Positions 2,067 through 16,793 are shown, counted from the stretch's first letter. The stretch: 17,376 bases of DNA from a virus (IMGVR_UViG_2703718846_000005:1-17376); one strand, 5' to 3'. The notes: generated by a model not told the origin, from the letters alone. Made by a program: numbers and translations.

Positions 2067-2289
2067 GAAGGAAACAAACAGAAACAACAATTGCCGTTAT
2101 CTGTTGCCACCAATGACAAGTAAACGTATCTCAGGCGAGCGCATTGCGCCGTTCTGACGCGGATACATTAGCCTGGGCAGAAGGTTCTGGAAATAAAAAA
2201 TAGCGTTTTCTTATCGGTGTCGGTAAGATTGTTGCGGGTGCTTGAGGCTGTCTGCCTCGGGCATGCCACTGTAAGGCAGACAGAGAAAA

Positions 2290-2356
2290 GCCCCAGTTAA
2301 CATTACGCGTCCTGCAAGACGCTTAACATTAATCTGAGGCTCAATCTATGAACGGC
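2290..2356 (-). ncRNA. sok: Sok-like antisense RNA (type I antitoxin) with its promoter
   Basis: Minus-strand promoter TTGCCT-17 nt-TAACCT (plus coords 2391-2386 and 2368-2363), matching my recollection of the R1 sok promoter TTGCGC-17-TATCCT; transcript would be antisense to the mok start region. Ends are approximate. Confidence 0.45.
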
Positions 2357-2560
2357 AAATCTAGGTTAGCCTCTTACGTGCCGAAAGGCAAGGAGAAGCA
2401 GGCTATGAAGCAGCAAAAGGCGATGTTAATCGCCCTGATCGTCATCTGTTTAACCGTCATTGTGACGGCACTGGTAACGAGGAAAGACCTCTGCGAGGTA
2501 CGAATCCGAACCGGCCAGACGGAGGTCGCTGTCTTCACAGCTTACGAACCTGAGGAGTAA
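2348..2560 (+). CDS. mok-like upstream reading frame, in frame with hok (70 codons)
   Basis: ATG 2348 opens a frame that contains the hok ATG 2405 and shares its stop; position matches mok of hok/sok loci. Confidence 0.4.
   Translation: MNGKSRLASYVPKGKEKQAMKQQKAMLIALIVICLTVIVTALVTRKDLCEVRIRTGQTEVAVFTAYEPEE
2405..2560 (+). CDS. hok: Hok/Gef-family type I toxin (51 aa)
   Basis: MKQQKAMLIALIVICLTVIVTALVTRKDLCEVRIRTGQTEVAVFTAYEPEE: single TM helix plus conserved C-terminal Hok motif; I recognise it as HokD/RelF-like; GGAGAAG SD upstream. Confidence 0.85.
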   Translation: MKQQKAMLIALIVICLTVIVTALVTRKDLCEVRIRTGQTEVAVFTAYEPEE

Positions 2561-2955: not shown

Positions 2956-2973
2956 TGATGGGTATTGTGCTCT

Positions 2974-3459
2974 ATGGCTGAGATTGTTGAAGGAGTGCAT
3001 TACCTTACGGTTGATGATCTTGTTGAAATCAATCGTTCCCTAATTGAATTACAGACGCCAGATGAGCCCGTTGGTGTTCTGAGTCCAGATAACTTAAGTT
3101 CTTCTCAGGCCCGTCCCAGCATGGTTCGATGGTATGAACAGACTAATGACATGTTTGTACTGGCATCGGTATTGATTGAAAGTCTGATTCAGAATCATCC
3201 GTTTGCTAATGCGAACAAACGAACAGCTATGATGGCTGGTTACGTCTTCTTGTTGTTGAATGGCTATGAGTTAACAGCACCAGGCGATGAAATCGTGGAA
3301 ATGGCAGAGGGACTGGCCTGCAAAACCTATACTCGAGAAGATCTCGAGAACTGGTTGTGTTATTGGTCTCGCGCGTATGACAGCCGGGAATTATGTAAAA
3401 CAGGCGCAACTATTGTTTTGTATGAAACTATCAAGCTTAAAATAGAACAGCAAAACTAA
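2974..3459 (+). CDS. doc: Doc (death-on-curing) family toxin, Fic fold
   Basis: Contains HPFANANKRTA, matching the Doc motif HxFx(D/N)(A/G)NKR; size about 160 aa; start could be TTG 2965 or ATG 2974. Confidence 0.8.
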   Translation: MAEIVEGVHYLTVDDLVEINRSLIELQTPDEPVGVLSPDNLSSSQARPSMVRWYEQTNDMFVLASVLIESLIQNHPFANANKRTAMMAGYVFLLLNGYELTAPGDEIVEMAEGLACKTYTREDLENWLCYWSRAYDSRELCKTGATIVLYETIKLKIEQQN

Positions 3460-3854: not shown

Positions 3855-4904
3855 GTGCGGGTATTACTTCGACCTGTTCCGGTACCGGAACTCGGGCTGG
3901 TGGTCCTTAAGCCTGGTCGTGAATCCATGCAGGTATTTCATAACCCTCGAGTGCTGGTGGAGCCGGAACCGAAAAGCATGCGCGGTCTGCCGTCCGGAGT
4001 TGTTCCTGCTGTTCGCCAGCCGCTGGCGGAAGATAAATCATTACTGCCATTTTTCAGCGATGAGCGGGTGATTCGTGCTGCTGGCGGCGCTGGCGCACTG
4101 TCTGACTGGCTGTTGCGTCATGTCAAATCCTGCCAGTGGCCTCATGGTGACTATCATCACAGTGAAACCGTCATACATCGTTACGGTACCGGCGCAATGG
4201 TGTTGTGCTGGCACTGTGACAACCAGCTGCGTGACCAGACATCCGAATCACTCGGGCAGCTTGCTCAACAAAATCTGACAGCCTGGATGATTGACGTCAT
4301 ACGCCATGCAATGAATGGCACACAGGAGCGGGAATTATCGCTGGCTGAACTGTACTGCTGGGCTGCTGTAAATGATGTAGTGGATGCCATGACCGAAAAT
4401 ATGGCGCGTCGAATCCTGAAGCTTCCGGGTGAAAAAATCCACTCAGTATACCGCGAGAGTAACATCATACCGGGAGAACAGACAGCCACCAGCATACTGA
4501 AGCAGCGCACAAAAAATTTTGCGCCGTTGCCTCACGCCCACCAGCAACAGAACCCACCACAGGAAAAGACGGTTGTAAGTATCACAGTTGATCCGGAGTC
4601 ACCGGAATCATTCATGAAGCGGCCTAAACGTCGCCGCTGGGTGAATGAGAAATACACGCGCTGGGTAAAGACACAGCCGTGTACGTGTTGTGGTAAGCCA
4701 GCAGACGATCCCCATCACCTGATTGGTCACGGTCAGGGCGGAATGGGGACAAAAGCCCACGATATTTTTACGTTGCCGCTGTGTCGGGAACATCACAACG
4801 AACTTCATGCAGATCCGCAGGCGTTCGAAGAAAAGCATGGTTCTCAGGTTGATTTAATTTTTCGTTTTCTTGATCACGCCTTTGCAACTGGCGTACTCGG
4901 ATAA
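3855..4904 (+). CDS. DUF968-like prophage protein with C-terminal HNH-type Cys/His motif
   Basis: GTG 3855 with GGAGG SD; C-terminus CTCCGKPADDPHHLIGHGQGGMGTKAHDIFTLPLCREHHNELH; resembles Qin YdfU-type proteins (from memory). Confidence 0.65.
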   Translation: MRVLLRPVPVPELGLVVLKPGRESMQVFHNPRVLVEPEPKSMRGLPSGVVPAVRQPLAEDKSLLPFFSDERVIRAAGGAGALSDWLLRHVKSCQWPHGDYHHSETVIHRYGTGAMVLCWHCDNQLRDQTSESLGQLAQQNLTAWMIDVIRHAMNGTQERELSLAELYCWAAVNDVVDAMTENMARRILKLPGEKIHSVYRESNIIPGEQTATSILKQRTKNFAPLPHAHQQQNPPQEKTVVSITVDPESPESFMKRPKRRRWVNEKYTRWVKTQPCTCCGKPADDPHHLIGHGQGGMGTKAHDIFTLPLCREHHNELHADPQAFEEKHGSQVDLIFRFLDHAFATGVLG

Positions 4905-4916
4905 AAGAGGTTACTG

Positions 4917-5291
4917 ATGGGGATAGAATTTGTTTTGCCTTACCCGCCGACGGTAAACACCTACTGGCGACGCCGTGGCAGCACATATTTTATATCGGAA
5001 GCCGGTAAGCGTTATCGCCGTGATGTGGCACTTATAGTTCGCCAGCAGAGGCTGAAATTAAACCTGTCCGGAAGGCTGGCGATAACGGTTATTGCCGAGC
5101 CTCCGGATAAGCGCCGTCGTGATCTGGACAATATCCTGAAAGCGCCACTGGATGCACTGACACATGCGGGGTTGCTCATAGACGATGAGCAGTTTGATGA
5201 AATCAATATTGTGCGCGGTCAGCTCGTTCCTGGTGGGCGGCTGGGCGTGAAGATTTACGAAATAATGCATGACGGGCAGGTCCAAAAATGA
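4917..5291 (+). CDS. rusA: Holliday junction resolvase RusA
   Basis: ..RRRDLDNILKAPLDALTHAGLLIDDEQ.. matches the RusA catalytic region; AAGAGG SD; stop overlaps Q start (ATGA). Confidence 0.9.
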   Translation: MGIEFVLPYPPTVNTYWRRRGSTYFISEAGKRYRRDVALIVRQQRLKLNLSGRLAITVIAEPPDKRRRDLDNILKAPLDALTHAGLLIDDEQFDEINIVRGQLVPGGRLGVKIYEIMHDGQVQK

Positions 5292-6109
5292 AACTGGAAG
5301 ATTTACCGAAATACTATTCCCCAAAATCGCCAGGCCTGACTGATGTATCCGCCTCGACGTCAAAAGATGCACTGAGTATCACTGATGTGATGGCTGCGCA
5401 GGGGATGACACAGAACCGGGCTGAGATGGGATTTTCTGCGTTCCTGGGGAAAATGGGTATTAGTATGAATGACAGGGTGCGGGCAACAGAATTACTGACA
5501 GATTATGCATTAAGTCAGTGCGATCGTGTGGCGGCGTTAAGGAAACTTCCGGCAGAAATAAAACCGGCAGTGATGCGTATTATGGCTTCGTATGCTTTTG
5601 AGGATTATGCCCGCAGCGCAGCGAGTAAAAAGCAGTGCCCTTGTTGCCATGGGGAAAAATTTATTGAAAGCGAAGTTTTTACAAACAAGGTTCAGTATCC
5701 GGATGGTAAGCCGCCAGTATGGGCAAAGTGTACAAAAGGCGTGTATCCGTCTTACTGGGAAGAATGGAAAAAAATCCGGGAGGTGGTGAAAGTTTCCTGT
5801 CCTGAATGTAAAGGGAAGGGGGAGATCTCCACTGCCTGTAAAGACTGCCGTGGGCGTGGTGTTGCCATTCATCGTGAAGAGTCAGAAAAACGGGGTATGC
5901 CTGTTATCAGGGGCTGCCGGCGTTGTGGCGGTCGTGGCTATGAAAGACTGCCATCAACGGAGGCATTTAATGCCATATGCAAAGTGACGAGTGCTATCAC
6001 GCTTGATACATGGAAAAAATCAGTGAAACGCTTTTACGATACGTTGGTGGTTCGGTTTGACATTGAAGAGGCATGGGCGGAGCGGCAGTTAAAGATGGTA
6101 ACGCGATAG
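5288..6109 (+). CDS. Late-gene antiterminator Q (Phage_antitermQ-like) with four CxxCxGxG zinc-finger repeats
   Basis: N-terminus MKLEDLPKYYSPKSP typical of Q antiterminators of E. coli prophages; sits immediately upstream of the late promoter. Confidence 0.8.
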   Translation: MKLEDLPKYYSPKSPGLTDVSASTSKDALSITDVMAAQGMTQNRAEMGFSAFLGKMGISMNDRVRATELLTDYALSQCDRVAALRKLPAEIKPAVMRIMASYAFEDYARSAASKKQCPCCHGEKFIESEVFTNKVQYPDGKPPVWAKCTKGVYPSYWEEWKKIREVVKVSCPECKGKGEISTACKDCRGRGVAIHREESEKRGMPVIRGCRRCGGRGYERLPSTEAFNAICKVTSAITLDTWKKSVKRFYDTLVVRFDIEEAWAERQLKMVTR

Positions 6110-6112
6110 TGT

Positions 6113-6143
6113 TGTTGATTTTTCCCGAATCTGTGGTAAATTC
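6113..6143 (+). promoter_or_regulatory. pR'-like late promoter (extended -10), presumed qut region
   Basis: TTGATT (6116-6121), 16-nt spacer, TGgTAAATT extended -10 (6134-6143), immediately after Q stop; small hairpin CGCCC-taacgat-GGGCG at 6144-6160 just downstream. Confidence 0.4.
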
Positions 6144-6190
6144 GCCCTAACGATGGGCGTTTTGTGCCTGACGTTAGAAGAATTTTTACA

Positions 6191-6217
6191 ACCCGCCACC
6201 GAGCGGGTTTTTTATTG
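6191..6217 (+). terminator. tR'-like terminator of short late leader RNA
   Basis: CCCGC-caccgag-CGGG followed by TTTTTT, about 50 nt downstream of the predicted late start. Confidence 0.65.
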
Positions 6218-6336
6218 CCCGAAAAACGGTACAGAACATTAAACGCGCTGGTGGTTACGAATACCGGTCTTTCAGCTTGTATTTTTGTAAATCGATATAT
6301 ACTTATCTTGTGACCAGTAATGTCAGGGCAATTGAT

Positions 6337-7080
6337 ATGAATGAAGCCTGTTCTGTTGTTTTTGTTCATTCCCCGTTTGTTGTGCTCTTTGAAGGAAAAG
6401 AGCTCTCTCTTGAAAGTGGTAGTGCACTTCTTGTCAGGGGGGGAGCTGGATCGTTATTGCCCTTTTCGGAATGTTTTCGGCGAATAAGTCTCAGTGAATC
6501 GACAATTAGCCGTTACCTGTTGTGTGGAGACGAAAAACAGGATGTAGTTTTAGTCCGGCAAATACCACGATATCTTTGCGTGAGTTTTCCCAAGGCAGAA
6601 TTGATGGGCATCCTGATTGATTATCTTTGTGAGGAAAAGATTCATACGGACAATTTAGCGGAAATGCTTTCCTTTTCGTGTCTGGCGTTTTTCTCATCAG
6701 AGAAAATGTTTTCGTCGTTTCTGACCGCGTGTATTAGCAATATTAGTGACAGGCTTAGTGCATTGTTTCGTACGGACATTGCAGCAAACTGGACTCTGAG
6801 AGATGTGTCTTCGCGGTTATGTATCAGTGAAAGTTTGTTAAAAAAAAGACTGAAAGAAGAAGGCACCTGTTTCAGTGAGTTGTTGCTTACAGAGAGAATG
6901 AGAATGGCAGCAATGCTGTTGAATCAATCTCGTTGCGCCATCAACAGAATCGCTGCTCAGTGCGGCTATAATTTTACATCTTATTTTATCAGCGTATTCA
7001 GGAGTTATTTTGGTGTTACACCGGCAGGTTACAGGATGGCTGCATTCAATGAGATGAGTTTAAGTGTTACTCAAGAATAA
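6337..7080 (+). CDS. AraC/XylS-family transcriptional regulator (AppY/EnvY/GadX-like), AT-rich moron
   Basis: C-terminal dual HTH (..LLKKRLKEEGTCFSELLLTERMRMAAMLL..IAAQCGYNFTSYFISVFRSYFGVTPAGYR); N-terminus MNEACSVVFV resembles AppY-type regulators; visibly AT-richer than flanks. Confidence 0.85.
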   Translation: MNEACSVVFVHSPFVVLFEGKELSLESGSALLVRGGAGSLLPFSECFRRISLSESTISRYLLCGDEKQDVVLVRQIPRYLCVSFPKAELMGILIDYLCEEKIHTDNLAEMLSFSCLAFFSSEKMFSSFLTACISNISDRLSALFRTDIAANWTLRDVSSRLCISESLLKKRLKEEGTCFSELLLTERMRMAAMLLNQSRCAINRIAAQCGYNFTSYFISVFRSYFGVTPAGYRMAAFNEMSLSVTQE

Positions 7081-7102
7081 TTGAATTTTGCACTCATTGA
7101 AA

Positions 7103-7131
7103 AAGGCTCGCTCCGGCGGGCCTTTTTCATA
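7103..7131 (+). terminator. Terminator after the AraC-family gene
   Basis: GGCTCGC-tccg-GCGGGCC hairpin (one mismatch) followed by TTTTTC. Confidence 0.5.
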
Positions 7132-7264
7132 TCTGCGCCACGCCCGGCGCACATCAAAAAACCACAGAGCCTTTCAGGGGGGAGCTTACGGGATGGTCAG
7201 TGTGACTTTCTCTGTGGGCTGCTCATCCCGGGGCGAGGCTCACCCACTAAAAGGAAAAGTCACG

Positions 7265-7690
7265 ATGTTTGGTATTTTCAAAAAGAAAACCCGTAAGGCT
7301 ATTACTGAAGTGAAGAAAATGGAGAACCGCGACGCAGTGGAGGCGACCGTCTGGGGCGCGTATTCCATTGCATACGCTGACGACACCTGTGACGCGAAAG
7401 AAATTGCGGTACTGGAGAAAACCATTGCAGCACTTCCTGCCTTTGCGCCGTTCTCCGGTGAGATTGCACAAATGAGTGCAAATATCCGCGCCCGTTATGA
7501 AGCATCACCGCGTTCTGCCAATGCTGAAGCTCTTCGTCAGCTGGCTGATGTTGCAGGTACTGATGATGCAGTTAATGTGCTGTGCCTGTGTCTCGATATT
7601 GCTGACCAGGACGGTATTGGTCCGGATGAAGAAGCACAGCTCAAGAAAATTGCGCAGGCGCTGCAGTTGCCACTGGAGCAGTATCTGTGA
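7265..7690 (+). CDS. TerB-like (tellurite-resistance TerB family) protein
   Basis: ATG 7265 with AAAGGA SD; two TerB-like helical repeats (AYSIAYADDTCDAKEIAVLEKTI and VLCLCLDIADQDGIGPDEEAQLKKIAQAL) resembling TerB as I remember it. Confidence 0.65.
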   Translation: MFGIFKKKTRKAITEVKKMENRDAVEATVWGAYSIAYADDTCDAKEIAVLEKTIAALPAFAPFSGEIAQMSANIRARYEASPRSANAEALRQLADVAGTDDAVNVLCLCLDIADQDGIGPDEEAQLKKIAQALQLPLEQYL

Positions 7691-7845
7691 AAACTGCGCG
7701 CCTTGTGCTGGCTGCCATCCTGTTGTTTCTGGTAGTGGCGGTTGATTTCACCGGGCGCCTGATGTCGGTGCTGGCTGATGGCGTGCTGGTGGTGATGGTA
7801 GTGGTCGTGCTCCGGCCTTTATTCCGGAACAAAAACAACAGCTGA
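7687..7845 (+). CDS. Small membrane peptide (52 aa) translationally coupled to the TerB-like gene
   Basis: GTG overlaps TerB-like stop (GTGA); product VKTARLVLAAILLFLVVAVDFTGRLMSVLADGVLVVMVVVVLRPLFRNKNNS is predicted TM; terminator follows. Confidence 0.4.
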   Translation: MKTARLVLAAILLFLVVAVDFTGRLMSVLADGVLVVMVVVVLRPLFRNKNNS

Positions 7846-7852
7846 TTATTTG

Positions 7853-7882
7853 AGCGGGCATTGAAAGCCCGCTGCATTTTTA
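7853..7882 (+). terminator. Terminator of the TerB-like unit, overlapping the stop of the convergent minus-strand gene
   Basis: AGCGGGC-attgaa-GCCCGCT hairpin followed by TTTTTA; the minus-strand side lacks a U-run. Confidence 0.55.
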
Positions 7883-8560
7883 TTGCTGCTGTTCCTTAAT
7901 GCGTTCCGGTAGCACAAATGCCACTTCAAGGAACAGGCGGAGAAACGCCACAAACTCTTTTGCCTGTTCACTACTGGCCTCGAGTTCGTGCACAGCCTCA
8001 TTGCCTTCCATACGGATTCGGTGAGCCCAGTTTCTCATTGATTCCGTCAGTATGCCGTCCTGCCGTGCCAGTTCAATGCGTGACAGCAGATTGCCTTTTT
8101 CGTACCCCAGGGCACGGAGGGCAACCTCGAGGACGCTACGGCAGCCAACAATGATACGCGGGGCGGTTCTGCCGGACCGAACATCCTCCTGCAACTCAGT
8201 GAAGACTGCGCGAATTTTTTCGGGATAGTGGGGGGAGTCATCGGGCAGCCTGAGTTCAGGATAGATTTTGATGCTTCCCTCAAGTGGAGCATTCAGCACC
8301 CAGGCTTTGTTGTTGATGGCTTTTTTCATGTCCACCAGTTCACTGACTGAACATTCGAATGCGATCATTAATGGGTTGTTACATTCTGTGCAAAAGTCTG
8401 TTGAGTATGCTTTTGCTGATGTTATTTCAGAGGTGCGCGGCTGTTGCACGTAAAGCTTGTTTTCTGTAGCCGGGCGCCTGCTGTGGTACTGGGTGACCTC
8501 ATTCAGAGAAATATGAACCTGATGAAGGCAGTACGGGCATCTAATTTTCAGGGAGTACAT
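7880..8560 (-). CDS. Zn-ribbon plus DUF4145-domain protein (226 aa), candidate defence/abortive-infection-type protein
   Basis: N-terminal CPYC...CTEC zinc ribbon; C-terminus ..RSVLEVALRALG..LLSRIELARQDGILTESMRNWAHRIRMEGNEAVHE..AKEFVAFLRLFLEVAF matches the DUF4145 pattern from memory; start at minus ATG 8560-8558 with AAGAGG SD. Confidence 0.65.
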   Translation of the reverse strand: MYSLKIRCPYCLHQVHISLNEVTQYHSRRPATENKLYVQQPRTSEITSAKAYSTDFCTECNNPLMIAFECSVSELVDMKKAINNKAWVLNAPLEGSIKIYPELRLPDDSPHYPEKIRAVFTELQEDVRSGRTAPRIIVGCRSVLEVALRALGYEKGNLLSRIELARQDGILTESMRNWAHRIRMEGNEAVHELEASSEQAKEFVAFLRLFLEVAFVLPERIKEQQQ

Positions 8561-8767
8561 ATGACCTCTTCGACAGAAGTGATAACTGAATTTGAAAATT
8601 GCATAGCAGATTCTGCCATTGATTCTGTAGCAGCGATAGAACGAAGGTTTGCTGCTGCTCAGACCCGGTATGGTCATGATGCAGCCGTCAAGGGGCTGGC
8701 AATGGCGTTTGTTATTGCGGAGAACCGCCGTCGCTTTATTGAAGCGCAAATGACACTAAAGCAATAA
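8561..8767 (+). CDS. Hypothetical small helical protein (68 aa)
   Basis: ATG 8561 with GGGAG SD 5 nt upstream; tandem terminators follow; start codon abuts the divergent DUF4145 gene start (CATATG). Confidence 0.45.
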   Translation: MTSSTEVITEFENCIADSAIDSVAAIERRFAAAQTRYGHDAAVKGLAMAFVIAENRRRFIEAQMTLKQ

Positions 8768-8780
8768 ATAGCACCACACA

Positions 8781-8841
8781 AAAGGCATCTGTGGGTGCCT
8801 TTGACTGGGTGTTTTTTTACGGGCCGACAGAGGCCCTTTTT
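8781..8841 (+). terminator. Tandem rho-independent terminators
   Basis: AAAGGCA-8 nt loop-TGCCTTT then U-run; GGGCC-gacaga-GGCCC then TTTTTT. Confidence 0.6.
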
Positions 8842-8860
8842 TATTTACAGGAGAAAAAGT

Positions 8861-9250
8861 ATGTCTGAACCCTTATCCGGTTCCGGCACGGCTGCGGCGC
8901 TCGGCGGGGCGACGGTATTCGGGCTGTTTACCGGAACGGATTTCGGGATTGTGTTTGGTGCATTCGCAGGGGCGCTGTTTGTGGCCACGATACCACAGAA
9001 GATTTCTGTCTGGCGTGTGGCAGCGCATTTTCTGGTGTCGTTCATTGTTGGCGTGCTGGGGGCGGATGTGATGGCGTCTTACCTGGTTGAAAAACTGAAT
9101 CTCCACAGCACATCTCTCGACGCACTTTGCGCGGTACTGGTATCGGTGGTGTCGGTGAAGATTCTCTCATTCATCCACCAGCAGGATATCGCATCGCTGG
9201 TATCCGGGCTGTTCTCCCGTCTGCGGGGTGGAGGCGGTAATGTTAAGTAA
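8861..9250 (+). CDS. Putative holin (3 predicted TM segments, 129 aa)
   Basis: AGGAG SD before ATG 8861; three hydrophobic segments, charged C-terminus; first gene of lysis cluster. Confidence 0.6.
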   Translation: MSEPLSGSGTAAALGGATVFGLFTGTDFGIVFGAFAGALFVATIPQKISVWRVAAHFLVSFIVGVLGADVMASYLVEKLNLHSTSLDALCAVLVSVVSVKILSFIHQQDIASLVSGLFSRLRGGGGNVK

Positions 9251-9515
9251 CCTTCCCGGATTACTGAATGTGGTGTTAAGCACGGTTATCGTGCTGACGC
9301 TCTTTTTTTATCGTCGCCGTGATTCCAGACATAAACCGCTGATGTCATGGCTGGCCTGGCTACTGATGCTGCTTTATGCCTTTGCACCACTCAGCTATCT
9401 GTGCGGTCGCCCGTTAGCGGCGAACTGGCTGGCGGTGGGGCTTAATCTGCTGTTCTGCGTGCTGGTGATACGTGCACGCGGGAACGTTTCAAAAATCCTT
9501 TCATTCCGGAGGTGA
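9240..9515 (+). CDS. Second holin/antiholin-like membrane protein (91 aa)
   Basis: ATG 9240 overlaps holin stop; three hydrophobic segments; basic C-terminus. Confidence 0.5.
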   Translation: MLSNLPGLLNVVLSTVIVLTLFFYRRRDSRHKPLMSWLAWLLMLLYAFAPLSYLCGRPLAANWLAVGLNLLFCVLVIRARGNVSKILSFRR

Positions 9516-9517
9516 GC

Positions 9518-9895
9518 ATGTCGGGTAAATTCAGATTCAGTCGTCGCAGTGAAAAAAATCTGGAGGGCGTCAAACCACAGCTGGTTGCTGTTGTTCGCCG
9601 TGCGCTGGAGCTGACGGAGGTTGATTTCGGTATTACGGAAGGTCTGCGCAGTAAGTATCGCCAGAAACAGCTGGTTGCAGAAGGTAAGAGCCAGACCATG
9701 AACAGCCGCCACCTGACCGGTGATGCTGTGGATGTTGTGGCTTATGTTGGCAGCCAGGTGTCATGGGACTGGCCTCTGTACGAGAAAATCGCACAGGCAT
9801 TTAAGCAAGCTGCCGCAGAGCTTGGAACTGCCATCGAATGGGGCGGTGACTGGCGGACGCTTAAAGACGGCCCACATTTTCAATTGAAGCGATAG
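9518..9895 (+). CDS. Endolysin, peptidase M15 family (L-alanyl-D-glutamate peptidase / VanY-like)
   Basis: SRHLTGDAVDV (SxHxxGxAxD zinc-binding motif) and ..WGGDWRTLKDGPHFQL; GGAGG SD before ATG 9518. Confidence 0.8.
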   Translation: MSGKFRFSRRSEKNLEGVKPQLVAVVRRALELTEVDFGITEGLRSKYRQKQLVAEGKSQTMNSRHLTGDAVDVVAYVGSQVSWDWPLYEKIAQAFKQAAAELGTAIEWGGDWRTLKDGPHFQLKR

Positions 9896-11732: not shown

Positions 11733-12242
11733 GTGGCTACGCAGACTGAAGTTGCCAGGCATTTGAGTCTGACCGATCGCCAGCTTCGCAGATTGCAGAA
11801 ATTGCCGGGTGCCCCGGTCTCGAATAAACGGGGGCATCATGACTTGGATGCCTGGCGTGATTTTTACATATCGTATCTGAGGAGAAGTAAAAATGATGTG
11901 TCTGATGGTGATAGCGAAGAAGACTATGAAGAAAAATTACTTATCGCCAGATGGAAATTGACTGAAGAACAGGCAATAGCACAGCAATTAAAAAATCAGG
12001 TAACTGAAGGCAGACTTATTGATTCAGGGTTCTGCGTTTTCGCCCTCAGCAAACTGGCGATGGCATTGTCCAGTACGCTTGATTCCATTCCTTTATCCAT
12101 GCAGCGACAGTTCCCGGATTTAACCCCGCGTCATATTGATTATCTGAAAACCCTTATCGCAAAGGGAGCGAATCAGTGTGCGCGGGCAGGGGATAAATTG
12201 CCGGAGTTACTCGATGAATATATCCGAACAACAGTTGAATAA
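11733..12242 (+). CDS. Terminase small subunit (lambda Nu1-like)
   Basis: GTG start with GAGGTGAG SD; ..FCVFALSKLAMALSSTLDSIPLSMQRQFPDLTPRHIDYLK.. closely parallels lambda gpNu1; overlaps the large-subunit start as in lambda. Confidence 0.9.
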   Translation: MATQTEVARHLSLTDRQLRRLQKLPGAPVSNKRGHHDLDAWRDFYISYLRRSKNDVSDGDSEEDYEEKLLIARWKLTEEQAIAQQLKNQVTEGRLIDSGFCVFALSKLAMALSSTLDSIPLSMQRQFPDLTPRHIDYLKTLIAKGANQCARAGDKLPELLDEYIRTTVE

Positions 12243-14574
12243 TATGATGATCGCCGTCACAACCGCATTACAGCCACTAATAAGGGCATTGCCGGTCACG
12301 CCGGTTGAATGGGCTGATCAAAATTATTATCTGCCTAAAGAATCGTCATACGGTGAAGGAGAGTGGAAAACCCTGCCGTTTCAGGTCGCCATTATGAACA
12401 GCATGGGGCACGACAGGATCCGCACTGTTAATCTGATTAAATCGGCGCGTGTGGGTTACACCAAAATGCTGCTGGGCGTGGTCGGGTATTTTATTGAGCA
12501 TAAATCCCGTAACAGCCTGCTCTTCCAGCCGACAGATTCCGCAGCTGAAGATTTTATGAAAGCGCATGTGGAAGCAACGCTCCGGGATGTCCCCAGCCTT
12601 AAAGCGTTATCGCCATGGCTGGGCAGAAAACATCGGGACAACACACTCACCCTGAAGCGTTTTTCCTCCGGCGTGGGGTTCTGGTGCCTGGGGGGGGCCG
12701 CTGCTAAAAACTACCGTGAAAAATCTGTGGATGTGGTCTGCTATGACGAACTCTCCTCGTTTGAACCGGATGTGGAAAAAGAAGGCTCGCCGACGCTGCT
12801 TGGCGATAAACGTATCGAAGGCTCGGTATGGCCTAAATCCATACGCGGCTCAACGCCAAAAATTAAAGGCTCCTGCCAGATTGAGAAAGCGGCGAATGAA
12901 TCTGCGCATTTCATGCGGTTTTATGTCCCTTGCCCTCATTGCGGGGAGGCCCAGTATCTGAAGTTTGGCGATGATGCGACGCCGTTTGGCCTGAAATGGG
13001 AGAAGGGTAAACCCGAAACGGTGTATTACCTGTGTGAACATAATGGCTGTGTGATCCGCCAGTCGGAACTTGACCAGACCGACGGATGCTGGATTTGTGA
13101 CAATACCGGGATGTGGACGCGTGACGGCCTGACATTTTACAGTGCCGGTGATGAGGAAATCCCGCCACCGCGCTCAATTTCGTACCACATCTGGACGGCA
13201 TACAGCCCGTTCACCACCTGGGTACAGATTGTTTATGACTGGCTCGATGCACTGAAGGATCCGAATGGCGTCAAGACGTTCATTAACACCACGCTCGGGG
13301 AGCCCTATGAAGAGGCCGTGGCAGAAAAACTGAGCTTTGAGTTGTTGCTGGAAAAAGTCTGCCACTATGGCGCGCAGGTTCCCCTGCGGGTGGTTTACCT
13401 GACCGCAGGGATAGACTCCCAGAAAGATCGCTATGAAATTTATGTTTGGGGCTGGGCTCCCGGCGAAGAAGCCTTTCTGATTGACAAGCAAATTATCATG
13501 GGGCGACCGGAGGACGAGGACACCCTTAAACGTGTTGATGCGGTGATCCGGAAAAAATACCGCCATGCTGACGGTACTGAAATTTCCATTTCCCGCGTCT
13601 GCTGGGATACCGGTGGTATCGACCAGGACATTGTGTATCAGCGATCCAGAAAACACGGCACTTTTTTTGTGCTTCCCATAAAAGGGGCATCGGTGTATGG
13701 CAAGCCGGTGATCACCATGCCCAAAAAGCGCAACCAGCGTGGTGTGTTTTTGTGTGAGGTGGGCTCCGATACCGTCAAGGAAATGCTGTACGCCCGTTTT
13801 GCCCTGCCGGTGGTTTCTGCCAGTGAAGCAGCTCCGTATACCTTCCGTTTTCCGGATAACCCGGACATTTTTTCGGAAGAAGAGGCGCGTCAAATCGTAG
13901 CGGAAGAACTGGTGGAAAAGGTGGTTAACGGCAGGGTGAAACTGCTGTGGGATAAAAAAGGGCGACGCAACGAAGCCCTCGACTGCCTGGTATATGCTTA
14001 TGCCGCCCTGCGCGTTTCGGTACAGCGGTGGCAACTGGACCTTGAAGCACTGGCGATGGCACGAAAAGATGAGCAGGATGAGGATGATATGAGCATGGAA
14101 GAGATCGCGGCTGCACTGAGTGGAGGATATTCCAGTGCCAGGGCATCCGCCAATGAGTCGTGGCGGTATTTTATGGGAAAACGAAAATTTGTGGCCAGTC
14201 GCCTGGCGTCACAGATGTTTGCCTGCTGGCTGGAGGAAGCCCTTATTCGTGGTGTGATCCGTCCGCCGAAATCCCGTTTCTCATTCTGGGAGGCTCGTTC
14301 CGGGTGGTGCCGTGCCGAGTGGATTGGTGCCGGTCGTATGGCGATTGATGGCCTTAAGGAAGTGCAGGAAGCGGTGATGCGCATTGAAGGCGGCCTGAGT
14401 ACATACGAGAAAGAGCTGGCCCTGATGGGGGATGACTATCAGGAGATTTTCCGCCAGCAGCTACGGGAAACTCAGGAGCGACAGGCTGCCGGTCTTCCGC
14501 GTCCGGTCTGGATAAAGGACGCGTTTCAACAGCAGATCCGACAGACAACGGGAGAAAAAGGCGATGCGCTGTAA
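12214..14574 (+). CDS. Terminase large subunit (lambda gpA-like) fused in frame to the C-terminal part of the portal protein (gpB-like)
   Basis: N-terminus MNISEQQLNN..VEWADQNYYLPKES..GDKRIEGSVWPKSIRGSTPK.. follows lambda gpA for about 637 aa; from about 14128 the frame continues as ..YSSARASANESWRYFMGKRKFVASR..MAIDGLKEVQEAVMRIEGGLSTYEKE.., which matches the lambda portal C-terminus (from memory). Confidence 0.85.
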   Translation: MNISEQQLNNMMIAVTTALQPLIRALPVTPVEWADQNYYLPKESSYGEGEWKTLPFQVAIMNSMGHDRIRTVNLIKSARVGYTKMLLGVVGYFIEHKSRNSLLFQPTDSAAEDFMKAHVEATLRDVPSLKALSPWLGRKHRDNTLTLKRFSSGVGFWCLGGAAAKNYREKSVDVVCYDELSSFEPDVEKEGSPTLLGDKRIEGSVWPKSIRGSTPKIKGSCQIEKAANESAHFMRFYVPCPHCGEAQYLKFGDDATPFGLKWEKGKPETVYYLCEHNGCVIRQSELDQTDGCWICDNTGMWTRDGLTFYSAGDEEIPPPRSISYHIWTAYSPFTTWVQIVYDWLDALKDPNGVKTFINTTLGEPYEEAVAEKLSFELLLEKVCHYGAQVPLRVVYLTAGIDSQKDRYEIYVWGWAPGEEAFLIDKQIIMGRPEDEDTLKRVDAVIRKKYRHADGTEISISRVCWDTGGIDQDIVYQRSRKHGTFFVLPIKGASVYGKPVITMPKKRNQRGVFLCEVGSDTVKEMLYARFALPVVSASEAAPYTFRFPDNPDIFSEEEARQIVAEELVEKVVNGRVKLLWDKKGRRNEALDCLVYAYAALRVSVQRWQLDLEALAMARKDEQDEDDMSMEEIAAALSGGYSSARASANESWRYFMGKRKFVASRLASQMFACWLEEALIRGVIRPPKSRFSFWEARSGWCRAEWIGAGRMAIDGLKEVQEAVMRIEGGLSTYEKELALMGDDYQEIFRQQLRETQERQAAGLPRPVWIKDAFQQQIRQTTGEKGDAL

Positions 14575-15523
14575 TTTATCACATATTGCCGCGATGGCAT
14601 TTAATGAGCCGCTTTTACTGGAACCCGCCTATGCGCGGGTTTTCTTTTGCGCACTGGGTAAGGAGATGGGGGCGGGCAGCCTTGCCGTTCCGCAGCAGGC
14701 CGTTCAGCTTGATGCCGATGGTATGCAGCTGGCGGTTACCGATTATATGACTGGTGGTCCGCGTCCGGTAAAGAGTTACCAGGTGAAAAATGGTATTGCC
14801 ATTCTGCCGGTGAGCGGCACGTTGGTACATAAAATGGGTACCCTGCGGCCATATTCCGGTATGACCGGTTATGACGGTCTGACTGCCCGTCTTAAGTCAG
14901 CGGTGAACGACCCGGATGTACGCGGCATTTTACTGGATATCGACAGTCCGGGTGGTCAGGCTGCCGGGGCGTTTGACTGTGCTGACATGATTTACCGTCT
15001 GCGGGAACAGAAGCCCGTGTGGGCGCTGTGTAATGACATGGCCTGTTCAGCCGCCATGTTGCTGGCGGCGGCCTGTACGCGTCGGCTGGTCACGCAGACG
15101 GCAAAAATTGGTTCGATTGGTGTGATGATGGCGCACACCAGTTACGAGAAACAACTGGCACAGGAAGGCGTGGATATCACGCTGATTTACTCCGGGCAGC
15201 ACAAGGTTGACGGCAACAGTATTCAGGCGTTGCCGACAGGTGTGCGTGCGGATTTTCAGCGCCGTATTGATGAGGCCCGCCGGATGTTTGTCGACAAGGT
15301 GGCGCTTTATACGGGGCTGAGTTCAGAGGCGGTGATGAATACCGAGGCTGCCGTTTATGACGGTCAGGCAGGCATTGATACAGGCCTGGCTGATCAACTG
15401 ATTAATGCTGCAGATGCCGTTGATGTACCATATTATTCTGAAAGCCAGACAGAATACATCCGCAGTGGTCATGAGAACGGTGGCGACAGTGGTGACAGGT
15501 CCGGCAGGAGAATATGCTTTTGA
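14564..15523 (+). CDS. Head maturation protease/scaffold gpC-like (S49 peptidase family), C-terminally truncated at a deletion junction
   Basis: ..HIAAMAFNEPLLLEPAYARVFFCAL..ILPVSGTLV..SGMTGYDGL..GVMMAHTSYEKQLAQEGVDITLIYSGQHKVDGN.. parallels lambda gpC to about aa 290, then diverges into 30 unrelated codons. Confidence 0.75.
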   Translation: MRCNLSHIAAMAFNEPLLLEPAYARVFFCALGKEMGAGSLAVPQQAVQLDADGMQLAVTDYMTGGPRPVKSYQVKNGIAILPVSGTLVHKMGTLRPYSGMTGYDGLTARLKSAVNDPDVRGILLDIDSPGGQAAGAFDCADMIYRLREQKPVWALCNDMACSAAMLLAAACTRRLVTQTAKIGSIGVMMAHTSYEKQLAQEGVDITLIYSGQHKVDGNSIQALPTGVRADFQRRIDEARRMFVDKVALYTGLSSEAVMNTEAAVYDGQAGIDTGLADQLINAADAVDVPYYSESQTEYIRSGHENGGDSGDRSGRRICF

Positions 15524-16793
15524 AGCTCAGACCGGAAAATATGACGTTTATCTTCGGTCGTGTATTGAAAGGGAATACTGTGTCGGTGATATTTCGGTTT
15601 ACCACGATTCAACGCCCGGCACGCTGAATGATTTTCTGACAGCCATCGATGAAGGTGACCTCAAACCCGACGTGGTGAAACGTTTTGAGGAAATGGTGGC
15701 GCAGGCGCAGCAGAGCGCGGAAACGGCAACAGAAAGCGAACGACAGGCAGGGCAACATGCAGACGCTGCCGCCCGGGTAAAAGAAGATGTAAAAAAACTG
15801 GTGGAAGGTGTTCAGCAGAACGCCGACGCGGTTGCGGAGGGTAAACAACAGGCCGAAACTCTGGTCTCACAGGTTGAGGATACCGCCGCAGAGGTCAGGC
15901 AGGATGCTGAAGCCGCGAAAAAGGCCGCATCTGATGCAGAGCATGTCAGGGAGGATATTGACACTGCGTTATCTGCGACACTGAAAACGGCGAATCGCCT
16001 GTCAGAGCTGGCTGATGAAGGTGAAGAGGCTCAGCAGGAATCCCGTGATAATCTTGGACTGAAAAGCGCAGCCACAATGACGCCACAGAGCGACATTCGT
16101 GACCGGACTGAAGGCCGTCTGGCGACACCTGGCGCATTTGGTTTTGGGCATATTTTTTTGCCCGCAGAGCGTATCCGTTTTAACACAGAGGATGATTTTC
16201 TGTCCTGGGTAAGGAATGCGACGCCGGGTGAATATTTTGTTGAGGGTGACAGTAAAATCATATCCGGAGGTGTGTTGTTTAACGGGATGGTCCGCATCCG
16301 GTGGGTTGAGGCACGCAATAATCCACCGGAGCCGCGATATACAGCAAAGGCCATTATTTTCTACGGTATTAATGGCGATGTTTATTACAACCGCTACTGG
16401 ACAACAGGTAATGGTTATCTGACTGGCTGGGAAAATCTGAAGATGACCTCACAGGACATTATCTCTCTTCTGTCCGGTATTGCTCCCGGTACCACGGACG
16501 GCTGGTACGGTGCAGGCAGTCTTGTACTGGCGGCTTATAACGGTAAGGGAGACGCAGACACCGACCGCCGGATAAAACGCGGTTACAGCTATCCGGGGTC
16601 ACGCCTGAGCGCGGTTGAATTTATGTGTCACGGCACGACCGGTAGCGGGGTTGGATATAACGGCAGCGTTTCCGTATATGTGCGGGGTTCTGGTGGTGGT
16701 ATGCCGGGGTCATATCGGGCACTGTCAGGTGACGGGCTCGGGTCTGCCGGGTCAGCCAGTGTCATGATTGGTTTGTTCATACGTATTGCGTAG
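15426..16793 (+). pseudogene. Side tail fibre protein (Stf-like), lacking native N-terminus and start; joined out of frame to gpC remnant
   Basis: ..ILKARQNTSAVV..DISVYHDSTPGTLNDFLTAIDEGD.. matches lambda Stf from about residue 20; Ala/Glu/Gln-rich coiled-coil then C-terminal domain; only fortuitous upstream ATGs (15405) lie in gpC-derived sequence. Confidence 0.65.

Follow-up and report, generated by a model that had tools for sequence, protein, structure and literature searches.

The Q-to-holin slot of a defective lambdoid prophage holds three independently swapped modules, one of them a candidate RAZR-like RNase cassette

Organization of the slot

The window is the whole 17,376-nt stretch of viral DNA that was analysed (IMGVR_UViG_2703718846_000005:1-17376). 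It belongs to a defective E. coli-type prophage, which has lost the portal and gpW genes and apparently most head and tail genes as well. ORF calls and a Pfam search place about 2.7 kb of cargo between the gene for the late antiterminator Q (5288-6109) and the holin gene (8861-9250), as an earlier reading made from the sequence only had claimed; the holin start is corrected here to the ATG at 8861. The features of the slot and its borders are as follows. The minus-strand gene is called the RNase gene after its predicted activity, and its neighbour the partner gene.

5288-6109, plus strand: late antiterminator Q of the QuuQ type, 273 aa (PF03589, E 1e-49); left border of the slot
6112-6216, plus strand: putative pR'-like late promoter region with two tR'-like hairpins (terminator scan, folds)
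6143-6159 and 6190-6209, plus strand: terminator-like hairpins within the pR'-like region (scan, folds)
6337-7080, plus strand: module 1, AraC/XylS-family regulator, YdeO-like, 247 aa (PF12833 and PF00165, E about 1e-13)
7098-7129, no strand assigned: strong, symmetric A5-stem-U5 terminator hairpin 3' of the AraC gene (dG -23.7 kcal/mol, z -7.2)
7265-7690, plus strand: module 2a, tciA, TerB-domain protein, 141 aa (PF05099, 29 bits against a cutoff of 24.4)
7687-7845, plus strand: module 2b, tciB, 52-aa DUF3927 membrane peptide with two hydrophobic stretches (PF13064, E 1.2e-13)
7851-7876, no strand assigned: hairpin between the convergent tciB and RNase genes, a plus-strand terminator for tciAB
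7880-8560, minus strand: module 3a, Zn-ribbon and DUF4145 (HEPN) protein, RAZR-like, 226 aa (PF13643, E 2e-11); antisense to the late operon
8561-8767, plus strand: module 3b, conserved partner gene (68 aa), which lies head-to-head with the RNase gene and reads in the direction of the late operon
8781-8802 and 8821-8836, plus strand: two terminator-like hairpins 5' of the holin ribosome-binding site (scan, folds)
8861-9895, plus strand: lysis cassette with holin, second holin and M15 endolysin (PF16931, PF05449; annotation of related loci); right border of the slot

The pR'-like late promoter was recognised by eye and is putative. The segment 6112-6216 is 87.6% identical to the DNA directly 3' of quuQ in the Stx2a phage Stx2_EH1910. 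The hairpins at 8781-8836 are part of the conserved backbone upstream of the holin gene, which resumes at 8767/8768, and phiP27 has matching DNA 5' of its holin gene. The terminator scan listed 12 terminator-like sites, compared with an expectation of 4.4 from shuffled sequences. Terminators are present among the cargo genes, and a consensus scan predicted no sigma-70 promoter upstream of any of these genes, the AraC gene, tciA, the RNase gene and the partner gene included.

The sequence-only reading had named an AraC-family regulator, a TerB-like protein, a 52-aa membrane peptide and a Zn-ribbon/DUF4145 protein, and HMM searches confirmed all four domain calls, with DUF3927 as the family of the peptide. 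It had also assigned intrinsic terminators to individual cargo units. The AraC gene, tciB and the 68-aa ORF are indeed followed by hairpins; a terminator of the DUF4145 gene is doubtful, since the hairpin at 7851-7876 has no U-tract on the minus strand.

Variation of the slot among related prophages

The slot is homologous to the one in which Stx phages carry stx, as had been supposed. Phage Stx2_EH1910 has the same ydfU-rusA-quuQ backbone with stx2 in the homologous slot. The pR'-like segment is common to both; it is followed in Stx2_EH1910 by a methylase gene, tRNAs, stx2AB and iraM. Compared with the stx or moron slot of Stx phages, the window has other cargo, no toxin, and one cargo gene antisense to the late transcript.

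The cargo also proved variable among related prophages that have the same Q and/or holin backbone. The slot contains the AraC gene only in CEA224S, the AraC gene and a methylase in STEC308, tciAB only in SE11 and A10, the DUF4145 cassette without tciAB in A34, and the AraC gene, tciAB and iraM in 09-00049. Of 5,426 complete E. coli genomes, 65 contain the AraC gene, 165 tciAB, 6 the DUF4145 cassette and one all three. The existence of single-module prophages on the same backbone, together with these genome counts, indicates that the modules assort independently. Exact module junctions were located by blastn at 7104-7177, 7829/7877 and 8767. The same modules also occur in prophages whose terminase and portal genes are still present. 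The cargo occupies the lambdoid "moron" position, that is between Q/pR' and holin and variable among related phages.

The sequence-only reading took the TerB-like protein, the membrane peptide and the DUF4145 protein for one module, and TciA, TciB and the DUF4145 protein might act jointly as one multi-gene defence or stress system. The cassette adjoins tciAB in the window and in five of the six complete E. coli genomes that have it, which taken alone would point to a functional link, and DUF4145 genes are occasionally coupled to TerD-type anti-phage loci (Anantharaman et al. 2013). However, the five adjacent E. coli copies form one 96-98% identical block and thus count as one event. Strain A34 has the cassette without tciAB, the reverse holds for SE11, A10 and about 160 further genomes, and a screen with tciA and tciB panel proteins found neither gene in those non-E. 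coli cassette loci whose flanks it covered. Furthermore, the tciB and RNase genes are convergent with a terminator hairpin between them, and phage P1 carries tciABC without any DUF4145 gene. A joint system is largely refuted by this distribution, and we consider it very improbable. The slot consists of three independently swapped modules, not of one system.

The AraC module

The AraC region is AT-rich, as had been noted earlier, with GC content 0.40-0.44 against about 0.50 in the flanks. The module borders were placed by blastn at 6187 and 7156/7177. The terminator hairpin at 7098-7129 lies within approximately 50 bp that are common to the AraC and tciAB modules (7104-7156, blastn). The gene is conserved in 40 genomes at an identity of 99% or higher, and its product matches phrog_1450 (E 1e-56).

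Full-length alignment to the NCBIfam YdeO equivalog model gives 148 bits for the protein, short of the cutoff of 348. A distant blastn search of the 5,426 genomes retrieved the gene from the 65 mentioned above and gave no matches below 90% identity; thus at the DNA level it is not ydeO, psrA, psrB or patE. The bit score and the blastn results speak against orthology to a characterised regulator of the YdeO/PsrA/PsrB/PatE type.

The prophage-encoded regulators AppY, PatE, PsrA and PsrB and the chromosomal YdeO and GadX are activators of the GAD acid-resistance regulon. What the window protein has in common with them is the AraC HTH; this HTH is C-terminal, and the gene is AT-rich, prophage-borne and free-standing. 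The module, with its own strong terminator, probably encodes a regulator that acts on host genes in lysogenic conversion. The analogy of YdeO, AppY, PsrB and PatE prompts the guess that its target is the acid-resistance regulon.

The tciAB module

The start of tciA is corrected to 7265. Its product belongs to phrog_632 (E 5.5e-64), and the gene is 79-81% identical to tciA of phage P1 at the nucleotide level over its full length of 426 nt. The membrane peptide matches phrog_1470, "TciB-like" (E 4e-24). The GTG start of tciB overlaps the stop codon of tciA (GTGA), and the two genes are translationally coupled. Judged by these similarities, the TerB gene and the peptide gene are the P1 tciA/tciB pair and have already been named, although the sequence-only reading knew of no named defence system that combines them with DUF4145. 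The tciB family (DUF3927), the gene order and the tight coupling are as in the P1 array tciA-tciB-tciC. In P1, tciB is followed by the 108-nt tciC, whereas the window has no tciC and a terminator hairpin 3' of tciB instead; there is no plus-strand ORF of at least 40 aa between tciB and the RNase gene. The P1 tci region is also variable among P1-like phage-plasmids.

Two other TerB-containing systems were considered and rejected. The ter operon (terZABCDE) does not fit, as the TerB domain is only partly aligned (29 bits) and no other Ter-family match occurs among the Pfam-scanned ORFs. Shango combines a TerB protein with an ATPase and a helicase; PADLOC gives no match for TciA or TciB up to E 1, and the Pfam scan of the island ORFs gives neither ATPase nor helicase.

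The pair consists of a cytoplasmic TerB-domain protein and a small membrane peptide. As no promoter is predicted for it, the pair is probably expressed by Q-antiterminated late read-through. This would parallel the setting in P1, whose tciA has the C1 operators of the ban promoter on one side and ban on the other, whereas the window pair is inside a lambdoid late operon.

The predicted RNase cassette

The cassette consists of two genes in 890 bp. The DUF4145 protein has 226 aa with its start at 8560; the 289 aa given earlier correspond to the maximal ORF only. C8, C11, C57, C60, R183 and H191 are invariant in an alignment of 21 homologues, and R183 and H191 form an Rx7H motif in the HEPN domain. 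Pairwise identity averages 0.40 over the zinc-finger domain and 0.69 over the HEPN domain. In the AF2 model, the zinc ribbon has four beta-strands (residues 3-7, 14-18, 48-56 and 63-71), and the two cysteine pairs are separated by an insert, about 30 residues long, that is poorly modelled. In a fold search of the PDB with the C-terminal domain, HEPN proteins make up 12 of the 13 top matches, with E above 0.6; they include HepT toxins and 7AE6, which is the comparator structure in the RAZR paper (PMC13017515).

The combination of a zinc ribbon with DUF4145 is the architecture of RAZR, the ring-activated zinc-finger RNase of E. coli also known as PD-T7-4 (Zhang et al., Nature 2026, PMC13017515), and thus this part of the island also resembles a named system. 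The PADLOC check proposed by the sequence-only reading gave a weak PD-T7-4 match for the window protein (18.4 bits, E 2.8e-4), which spans profile positions 64-186, the HEPN part only. Relatives of the protein match the same model over both domains (positions 15-177) with E about 1e-6 and 20-30 bits. Neither sequence nor Foldseek searches of the PDB gave a significant match, and RAZR was not among the structures returned. Since the window match is restricted to the HEPN part and even the relatives that span both domains score at 20-30 bits, the profile evidence makes the product a remote homologue of RAZR/PD-T7-4, not a member of the family. The domain composition and the invariant residues suggest a HEPN RNase with a role in defence.

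The start codons of the partner and RNase genes abut (CAT|ATG), and each ribosome-binding site lies inside the first codons of the other gene. The 68-aa ORF had been counted as a fourth, separate unit; in IMG/VR, however, it is never found without the DUF4145 gene, which is present in all 12 loci that hold the partner gene. Homologues of the partner from Salmonella, Trabulsiella, Budvicia, Pantoea and metagenomes likewise adjoin the RNase start directly, as is the case in all loci with at least 47% RNase identity except for one lineage. This lineage (loci L007, L023 and L037; 62% RNase identity) retains the catalytic motif without an intact partner gene, and thus the partner is not indispensable. 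In a codon-position test of the partner gene, 40 of 55 differences fall at position 3, and 29 synonymous codons stand against 14 non-synonymous ones. The ORF is a real gene under purifying selection. It is small and previously undescribed, with no match in Pfam, PDB, NCBIfam, PHROG or PADLOC.

In 26 of 26 loci the flanking phage genes are on the strand opposite to the RNase gene, and the partner gene, where present, is sense to them. These loci represent at least nine distinct contexts in two slots, Q-to-holin and Rz-to-terminase.

The strict linkage of the small partner to the RNase gene could also mean that the two genes are a toxin-antitoxin (addiction) pair that stabilises the prophage or the slot; the RNase would be constitutively toxic and the small protein its antidote, and there would be no phage-triggered defence. 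HEPN RNases are common as toxins, in agreement with the HepT toxins among the top fold matches. However, no antitoxin domain, MNT or other, is present in the partner, the two genes are divergent and not co-transcribed, and one lineage has an intact Rx7H RNase and no intact partner. Moreover, RAZR, which among characterised proteins is the closest in architecture, is not toxic by itself and has to be triggered by a phage (PMC13017515). An addiction pair is therefore unlikely. Its specific form, a HEPN-MNT type II toxin-antitoxin system, was rejected: the partner is divergent, only 68 aa long, and contains neither an MNT nucleotidyltransferase nor any other known family.

Still less credible is the explanation that a dead prophage carries the island as decaying junk without one functional gene. 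The loss of gpW, portal and apparently most head and tail genes would agree with decay, as would the lack of predicted promoters. On the other hand, the five ORFs are intact without exception, the residues for catalysis and zinc binding are invariant, substitutions in the partner gene are strongly biased to third positions, the AraC gene is nearly identical in its 40 genomes, and the same modules are found in prophages that keep terminase and portal genes.

Candidate mechanism

We suggest that the interval is a Q-to-holin cargo hot spot of a lambdoid prophage with three separately acquired modules, and that the RNase is a prophage-borne abortive-infection protein switched off at the start of the prophage's own late transcription. 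The RNase activity, its trigger, its part in defence and the off-switch are inferred; the domains and motifs, the mosaicism, the pairing and orientation of the genes and the purifying selection are observations. The whole explanation, including the defence role of the RNase and the off-switch, has in our estimate a probability of about 0.6.

The RNase would be made in the lysogen and kept inactive. Its expression there is putative, as no sigma-70 promoter is predicted for the gene. A protein of a superinfecting phage would meet the hypervariable zinc-finger domain, acting as the sensor, and this would lead to RNA cleavage and abortion of the infection. On induction, the Q-modified polymerase would read the RNase gene antisense and the partner gene sense. 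Late transcription could then turn the RNase off by transcriptional interference, antisense RNA, the partner protein, or a combination of these.

A tentative and rather doubtful extension is that the 68-aa gene and the head-to-head antisense layout form a built-in self-immunity switch. Firstly, late transcription would silence the RNase by collision or antisense RNA. Secondly, the small protein would block triggering by the phage's own ring-forming proteins, for example the portal. Selection for self-immunity is moot in the window copy, as this prophage is defective and has lost portal and gpW.

Comparison with known systems

RAZR has a zinc-finger domain and a DUF4145 HEPN domain with catalytic residues R146 and H154. 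It is activated by ring-forming phage proteins (portal, recombinase), cleaves ssRNA and causes abortive infection, and its specificity is set by the zinc-finger domain, which varies more than any other region (PMC13017515). RAZR and the window protein are both small single polypeptides in which a conserved linker connects a Cys4 zinc ribbon at the N-terminus to a C-terminal DUF4145/HEPN domain. The catalytic spacing Rx7H is the same (R146/H154 in RAZR, R183/H191 in the window), and in both families the zinc-finger domain is far more variable than the HEPN domain. At 226 aa the window protein is longer than RAZR, which has about 211 aa. The published description of RAZR is that of a single-gene system, whereas the window RNase has a conserved head-to-head 68-aa partner in most lineages and, unlike RAZR, is embedded antisense in phage late operons.

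DS-38 (DefensePredictor, WP_001313577.1), a validated anti-phage defence of the E. coli accessory genome, is likewise a zinc-finger and HEPN nuclease. It has this combination of domains in common with the window protein, but to judge by length it is neither the same protein nor in the same cluster, since DS-38 is a 1,101-nt gene (about 366 aa, Table S6) and the window protein has 226 aa.

A precedent for the proposed switch exists in its logic. BstA is a prophage abortive-infection protein with a self-immunity element, aba, which is a DNA element inside bstA (PMC8585504). In both cases a prophage-borne abortive-infection protein must leave its own phage unharmed when the prophage is induced. 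The two are unrelated in sequence, and the candidate for this function here would be a separate protein gene and/or antisense transcription. If true, the self-immunity switch would add a new regulatory partner to the RAZR class and would be a general answer to the question of how prophages tolerate their own abortive-infection genes.

Cargo between Q and the lysis genes

The window is a lambdoid prophage with the following features.

Features of the window
2236-2560: hok/sok, a type I toxin-antitoxin locus, complete (sok by Rfam, 110 bits; HOK_GEF by Pfam, E 3e-23)
2965-3459, plus strand: Fic/Doc-family gene, 3' of hok/sok
3855-4904, plus strand: DUF968 protein
4917-5291, plus strand: RusA
5288-6109, plus strand: Q antiterminator, 273 aa
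6337-7080, plus strand: AraC HTH protein
7265-7690, plus strand: TerB protein (tciA)
7687-7845, plus strand: DUF3927 peptide (tciB), with a GTG start overlapping the TerB stop codon
7880-8560, minus strand: DUF4145 protein
8561-8767, plus strand: 68-aa ORF
From 8861 (ATG of the first holin), plus strand: two holins and an M15 endolysin
Downstream of the endolysin, plus strand: Nu1 and GpA terminase subunits, S49 protease, tail-fibre N-terminus

The interval from the Q stop codon (6109) to the holin ATG (8861) is about 2.7 kb long. All four units that the sequence-only reading had placed here, an AraC regulator, a TerB protein with a peptide, a DUF4145 protein and a 68-aa ORF, are present with the domains proposed, and base composition bears out the AT-richness of the AraC segment. 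Terminator-like hairpins were found 3' of the putative late promoter, the AraC gene (dG -23.7 kcal/mol), tciB and the 68-aa ORF; no convincing terminator of its own was found for the DUF4145 gene. The scan returned 12 terminator-like sites, with 4.4 expected. Rfam gave no significant match over the island, its only match being sok upstream, and no tRNA genes were found.

The suggestion that this is the slot where Stx phages carry stx is directly supported, because the Stx2a phage Stx2_EH1910 has the same ydfU-rusA-quuQ backbone as the window, and the segment after its quuQ is 87.6% identical to the first 170 bases 3' of Q. There the genes that come next are a methylase, tRNAs, stx2AB and iraM. 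The last of these, encoding an anti-adaptor that stabilises RpoS, stands in reverse orientation in the Q-to-lysis slot both of the 09-00049 prophage (L012 4927-5262) and of the Stx2a phage (L040 8053-8376), and is a further case of antisense cargo here.

This is a defective prophage: a 1,335-bp stretch of the related, intact 08-00022 prophage (portal gene at L001 14725-16248) is absent from the window at 14128/14129. The deletion takes out gpW together with the greater part of the portal gene, and leaves the large terminase subunit (GpA domains to residue 614) joined to the portal C-terminus in a 798-aa ORF (12178-14574); DNA packaging is impossible for this prophage. Further downstream, the S49 prohead-protease ORF overlaps or runs into an ORF opening with a tail-fibre N-terminal domain (14564-16793). 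It encodes 319 aa, compared with 506 aa for its counterpart in the Salmonella loci L004-L006, and the head and tail genes between the two ORFs appear to have been deleted. None of the complete E. coli genomes covers the window at 80% or more.

Mosaic structure of the island

The island is a mosaic of three modules: the AraC gene, tciAB, and a cassette formed by the DUF4145 gene and the 68-aa ORF.

Occurrence in 5,426 complete E. coli genomes (megablast, coverage at least 80%)
Whole island: 1 genome (strain 08-00022, 96.5% identity)
AraC module: 65 genomes
tciAB: 165 genomes, many on P1-like plasmids
DUF4145 gene with 68-aa ORF: 6 genomes

The combination of cargo genes differs among prophages that share the Q and/or holin backbone.

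Cargo of related prophages
CEA224S: AraC alone
STEC308: AraC and methylase
SE11, A10: tciAB alone
09-00049: AraC, tciAB and iraM
C5: methylase, tRNA, tciAB and cassette
A34: cassette without tciAB

The comparison across related prophages therefore shows variable cargo in the Q-to-holin interval, which supports the reading of this interval as variable cargo in the stx slot. The idea that the TerB protein, the peptide and the DUF4145 protein form one unnamed system is not supported, since the modules assort separately both across the 5,426 genomes and among the related prophages. An IMG/VR contig encoding a 100% identical DUF4145 protein is without the AraC module.

Pairwise blastn places the module joints at 6187, 7104-7177, 7829/7877 and 8767/8768, the right joint being the stop codon of the 68-aa ORF. 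About 50 bp within 7104-7177 are common to the AraC and tciAB modules and hold a strong symmetric terminator hairpin, which may be an exchange joint for cargo modules. The joint between the arrangement with tciAB only (SE11, A10) and the one bearing the cassette lies inside the 3' end of tciB (7830-7845), and therefore alternative TciB C-termini result; tciB is 159 nt long in the window, 153 nt in the tciAB-only arrangement and 165 nt in 09-00049.

The AraC and tciAB modules

Both of these modules are of familiar types. Over its whole length the AraC protein fits the YdeO model, with 148 bits against a cutoff of 348. Distant blastn with the gene returned 65 genomes, all with at least 90% identity, and nothing else, and for this reason it represents a separate, rare lineage; ydeO, psrA, psrB and patE were rejected as identifications, as none is related to it at the DNA level. 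Prophage AraC regulators are well known to feed the GAD acid-resistance regulon, and by analogy this regulon is a reasonable guess for the target. The coding sequence (6337-7080) shows 99% identity or more across 40 genomes, and in CEA224S the prophage backbone around it has only some 92% identity to the window, which suggests recent spread or strong constraint.

By similarity, the TerB protein and the peptide are TciA and TciB, known from phage P1. The tciA gene has 79-81% nucleotide identity to that of P1 and its product matches phrog_632 (E 5.5e-64); TciB matches phrog_1470 (E 4e-24). The third gene, tciC, is absent from the window, and neither TciA nor TciB matched any PADLOC model, including Shango. 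In P1 the C1-controlled ban promoter precedes the tci genes, and a survey lists tciABC as a variable region among P1-like plasmids. The pair is widespread, with about 3% of the complete E. coli genomes having it. Promoter prediction returned nothing for the 130-nt tciA leader, and thus expression by late read-through seems most likely. The fold of the leader (7131-7275) is not significant (z -1.3). The leader (7104-7263) travels with tciAB in other prophages, and it is 74% identical to the sequence 5' of an unrelated NMT1_3-family cargo gene of a different prophage lineage (L007 4695-4829). It is possibly a portable leader or a recombination joint. PP818812.1 (17432-18151), deposited as an Actinobacillus pleuropneumoniae phage, contains tciA at 92.8% nucleotide identity to the E. 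coli-type gene of the window, which is unexpected for this host.

The zinc-ribbon RNase candidate

Twenty homologues of 226-247 aa, drawn from a pool of 29, align over their full length with the DUF4145 protein. Therefore the true product is the 226-aa protein including the zinc ribbon. In two of the three E. coli annotations inspected (08-00022 and C5), PGAP calls a 162-aa protein starting at MIAFECSV (L001 8694-9182 and L002 5779-6267, corresponding to window 7880-8368) and the conserved zinc ribbon is lost; the A34 annotation has the full-length gene (225 aa). The short call is corrected here. Invariant residues in the alignment are C8, C11, C57 and C60, together with R183 and H191, which make up the Rx7H motif. 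Mean pairwise identity is 0.40 in the zinc-finger domain versus 0.69 in the HEPN domain.

The model of the C-terminal domain has pLDDT 82, and 12 of its 13 top PDB matches are HEPN proteins, including 1O3U (probability 0.92) and 7AE6, with E-values that are not significant. Sequence searches of PDB with the protein and with a 21-sequence profile gave chance matches only, and RAZR was not returned. Among 1.84 billion representative proteins, the family profile matched 102 clusters at E <=1e-30 and 2,333 at E <=1e-3.

The 68-aa partner gene

The ATG of the 68-aa ORF (8561) abuts the ATG of the RNase gene (8560) on the opposite strand (CAT|ATG), and the Shine-Dalgarno box of each gene lies within the first codons of the other. 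The ORF is a real gene under purifying selection: 40 of 55 nucleotide differences from the Salmonella copy fall at codon position 3, and the codon changes are 29 synonymous versus 14 non-synonymous, with only 2-6 synonymous in shifted frames. The sequence-only reading was right to list it as part of the cargo; it is not a separate unit, however, as it pairs with the RNase gene.

Assemblies, GTDB genomes, IMG/VR and metagenomic data supplied loci of the RNase family, on which an HMM of the small protein was run. At all loci with RNase identity of at least 47%, except for one lineage, a partner homologue abuts the RNase start or overlaps it by 1-2 nt. This pairing spans E. coli, Salmonella, Trabulsiella, Budvicia, Pantoea and uncultured phages. 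The exceptional lineage (62% RNase identity) has no intact copy, and an NMT1_3 gene is the neighbour; at two distant loci (33-36%) the HMM found no partner. A reverse search of IMG/VR with the small protein yielded 12 loci, and all 12 contigs also carry the RNase gene. The small protein matches no family in Pfam, PHROG, NCBIfam, PADLOC or PDB, the apparent PDB hits being repeat artefacts on designed WD40 proteins.

Orientation and possible regulation

At all 26 loci considered, representing at least nine distinct neighbourhoods in several genera, the flanking phage genes are on the strand opposite to the RNase gene, and the small gene, where present, is on the same strand as the phage genes. 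The cassette occupies two slots, Q-to-holin and Rz-to-small-terminase. It is about 890 bp long with practically no non-coding ends; therefore the RNase promoter lies inside the partner gene or comes from the flanks. Neither sigma-70 prediction nor alignment of eight cassettes revealed one (no conserved -35/-10 pair), and a TACAGT-like hexamer about 45 nt upstream of the RNase gene is too weak to be called a promoter.

A prophage with a RAZR-like gene must escape self-killing while assembling its own portal. We propose the following. The protein would be an abortive-infection RNase made in the lysogen and triggered, as in RAZR, by a superinfecting-phage protein acting via the zinc-finger domain. 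Once the carrier prophage is induced, RNA polymerase modified by Q would pass the terminators and transcribe the partner gene in the sense direction and the RNase gene in the antisense direction. RNase expression would fall and the small protein would be made, possibly as an inhibitor of the RNase.

The close pair could also be read as a classical toxin-antitoxin system. The lineage without an intact partner argues against this, as the partner is thus not strictly required; the same fact limits confidence in self-immunity too. An abortive-infection RNase held off at self-induction would belong to a known category, prophage abortive-infection systems with dedicated self-immunity, such as BstA/aba (PMC8585504). 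The 890-bp cassette is a concrete, cloneable object for studying how such RNases stay off when their own prophage is induced.

Relation to known systems

RAZR (PD-T7-4), described in 2026, is a single-protein sensor of large phage rings, portals among them. It combines a Cys4 zinc ribbon with a DUF4145 HEPN RNase whose catalytic residues are R146 and H154; the zinc-finger domain sets its specificity, and it is activated by assembly around phage portal or recombinase rings and acts by abortive infection (PMC13017515). The window protein has the same architecture: zinc ribbon, DUF4145 HEPN domain, Rx7H residues and a variable zinc finger. However, the relationship is remote: with the PD-T7-4 model of PADLOC the protein scores only 18 bits, in the HEPN part, and several relatives of 211-228 aa match that model across both domains at E 1e-6 to 6e-5. 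We conclude that the window protein belongs to a sister family within a Zn-ribbon/DUF4145 superfamily and is not RAZR itself. Relatives of about 210 aa from the 1.8-billion-protein search were considered as RAZR candidates, and none is a true PD-T7-4 member (20-30 bits). DS-38, a DefensePredictor protein with zinc-finger and HEPN domains, is ruled out by length (about 366 aa versus 226 aa). The cassette is a new variant among RAZR-type zinc-finger HEPN defence proteins; whereas RAZR is a single protein, this RNase is set apart by its conserved orphan partner gene and its fixed antisense position in phage late operons.
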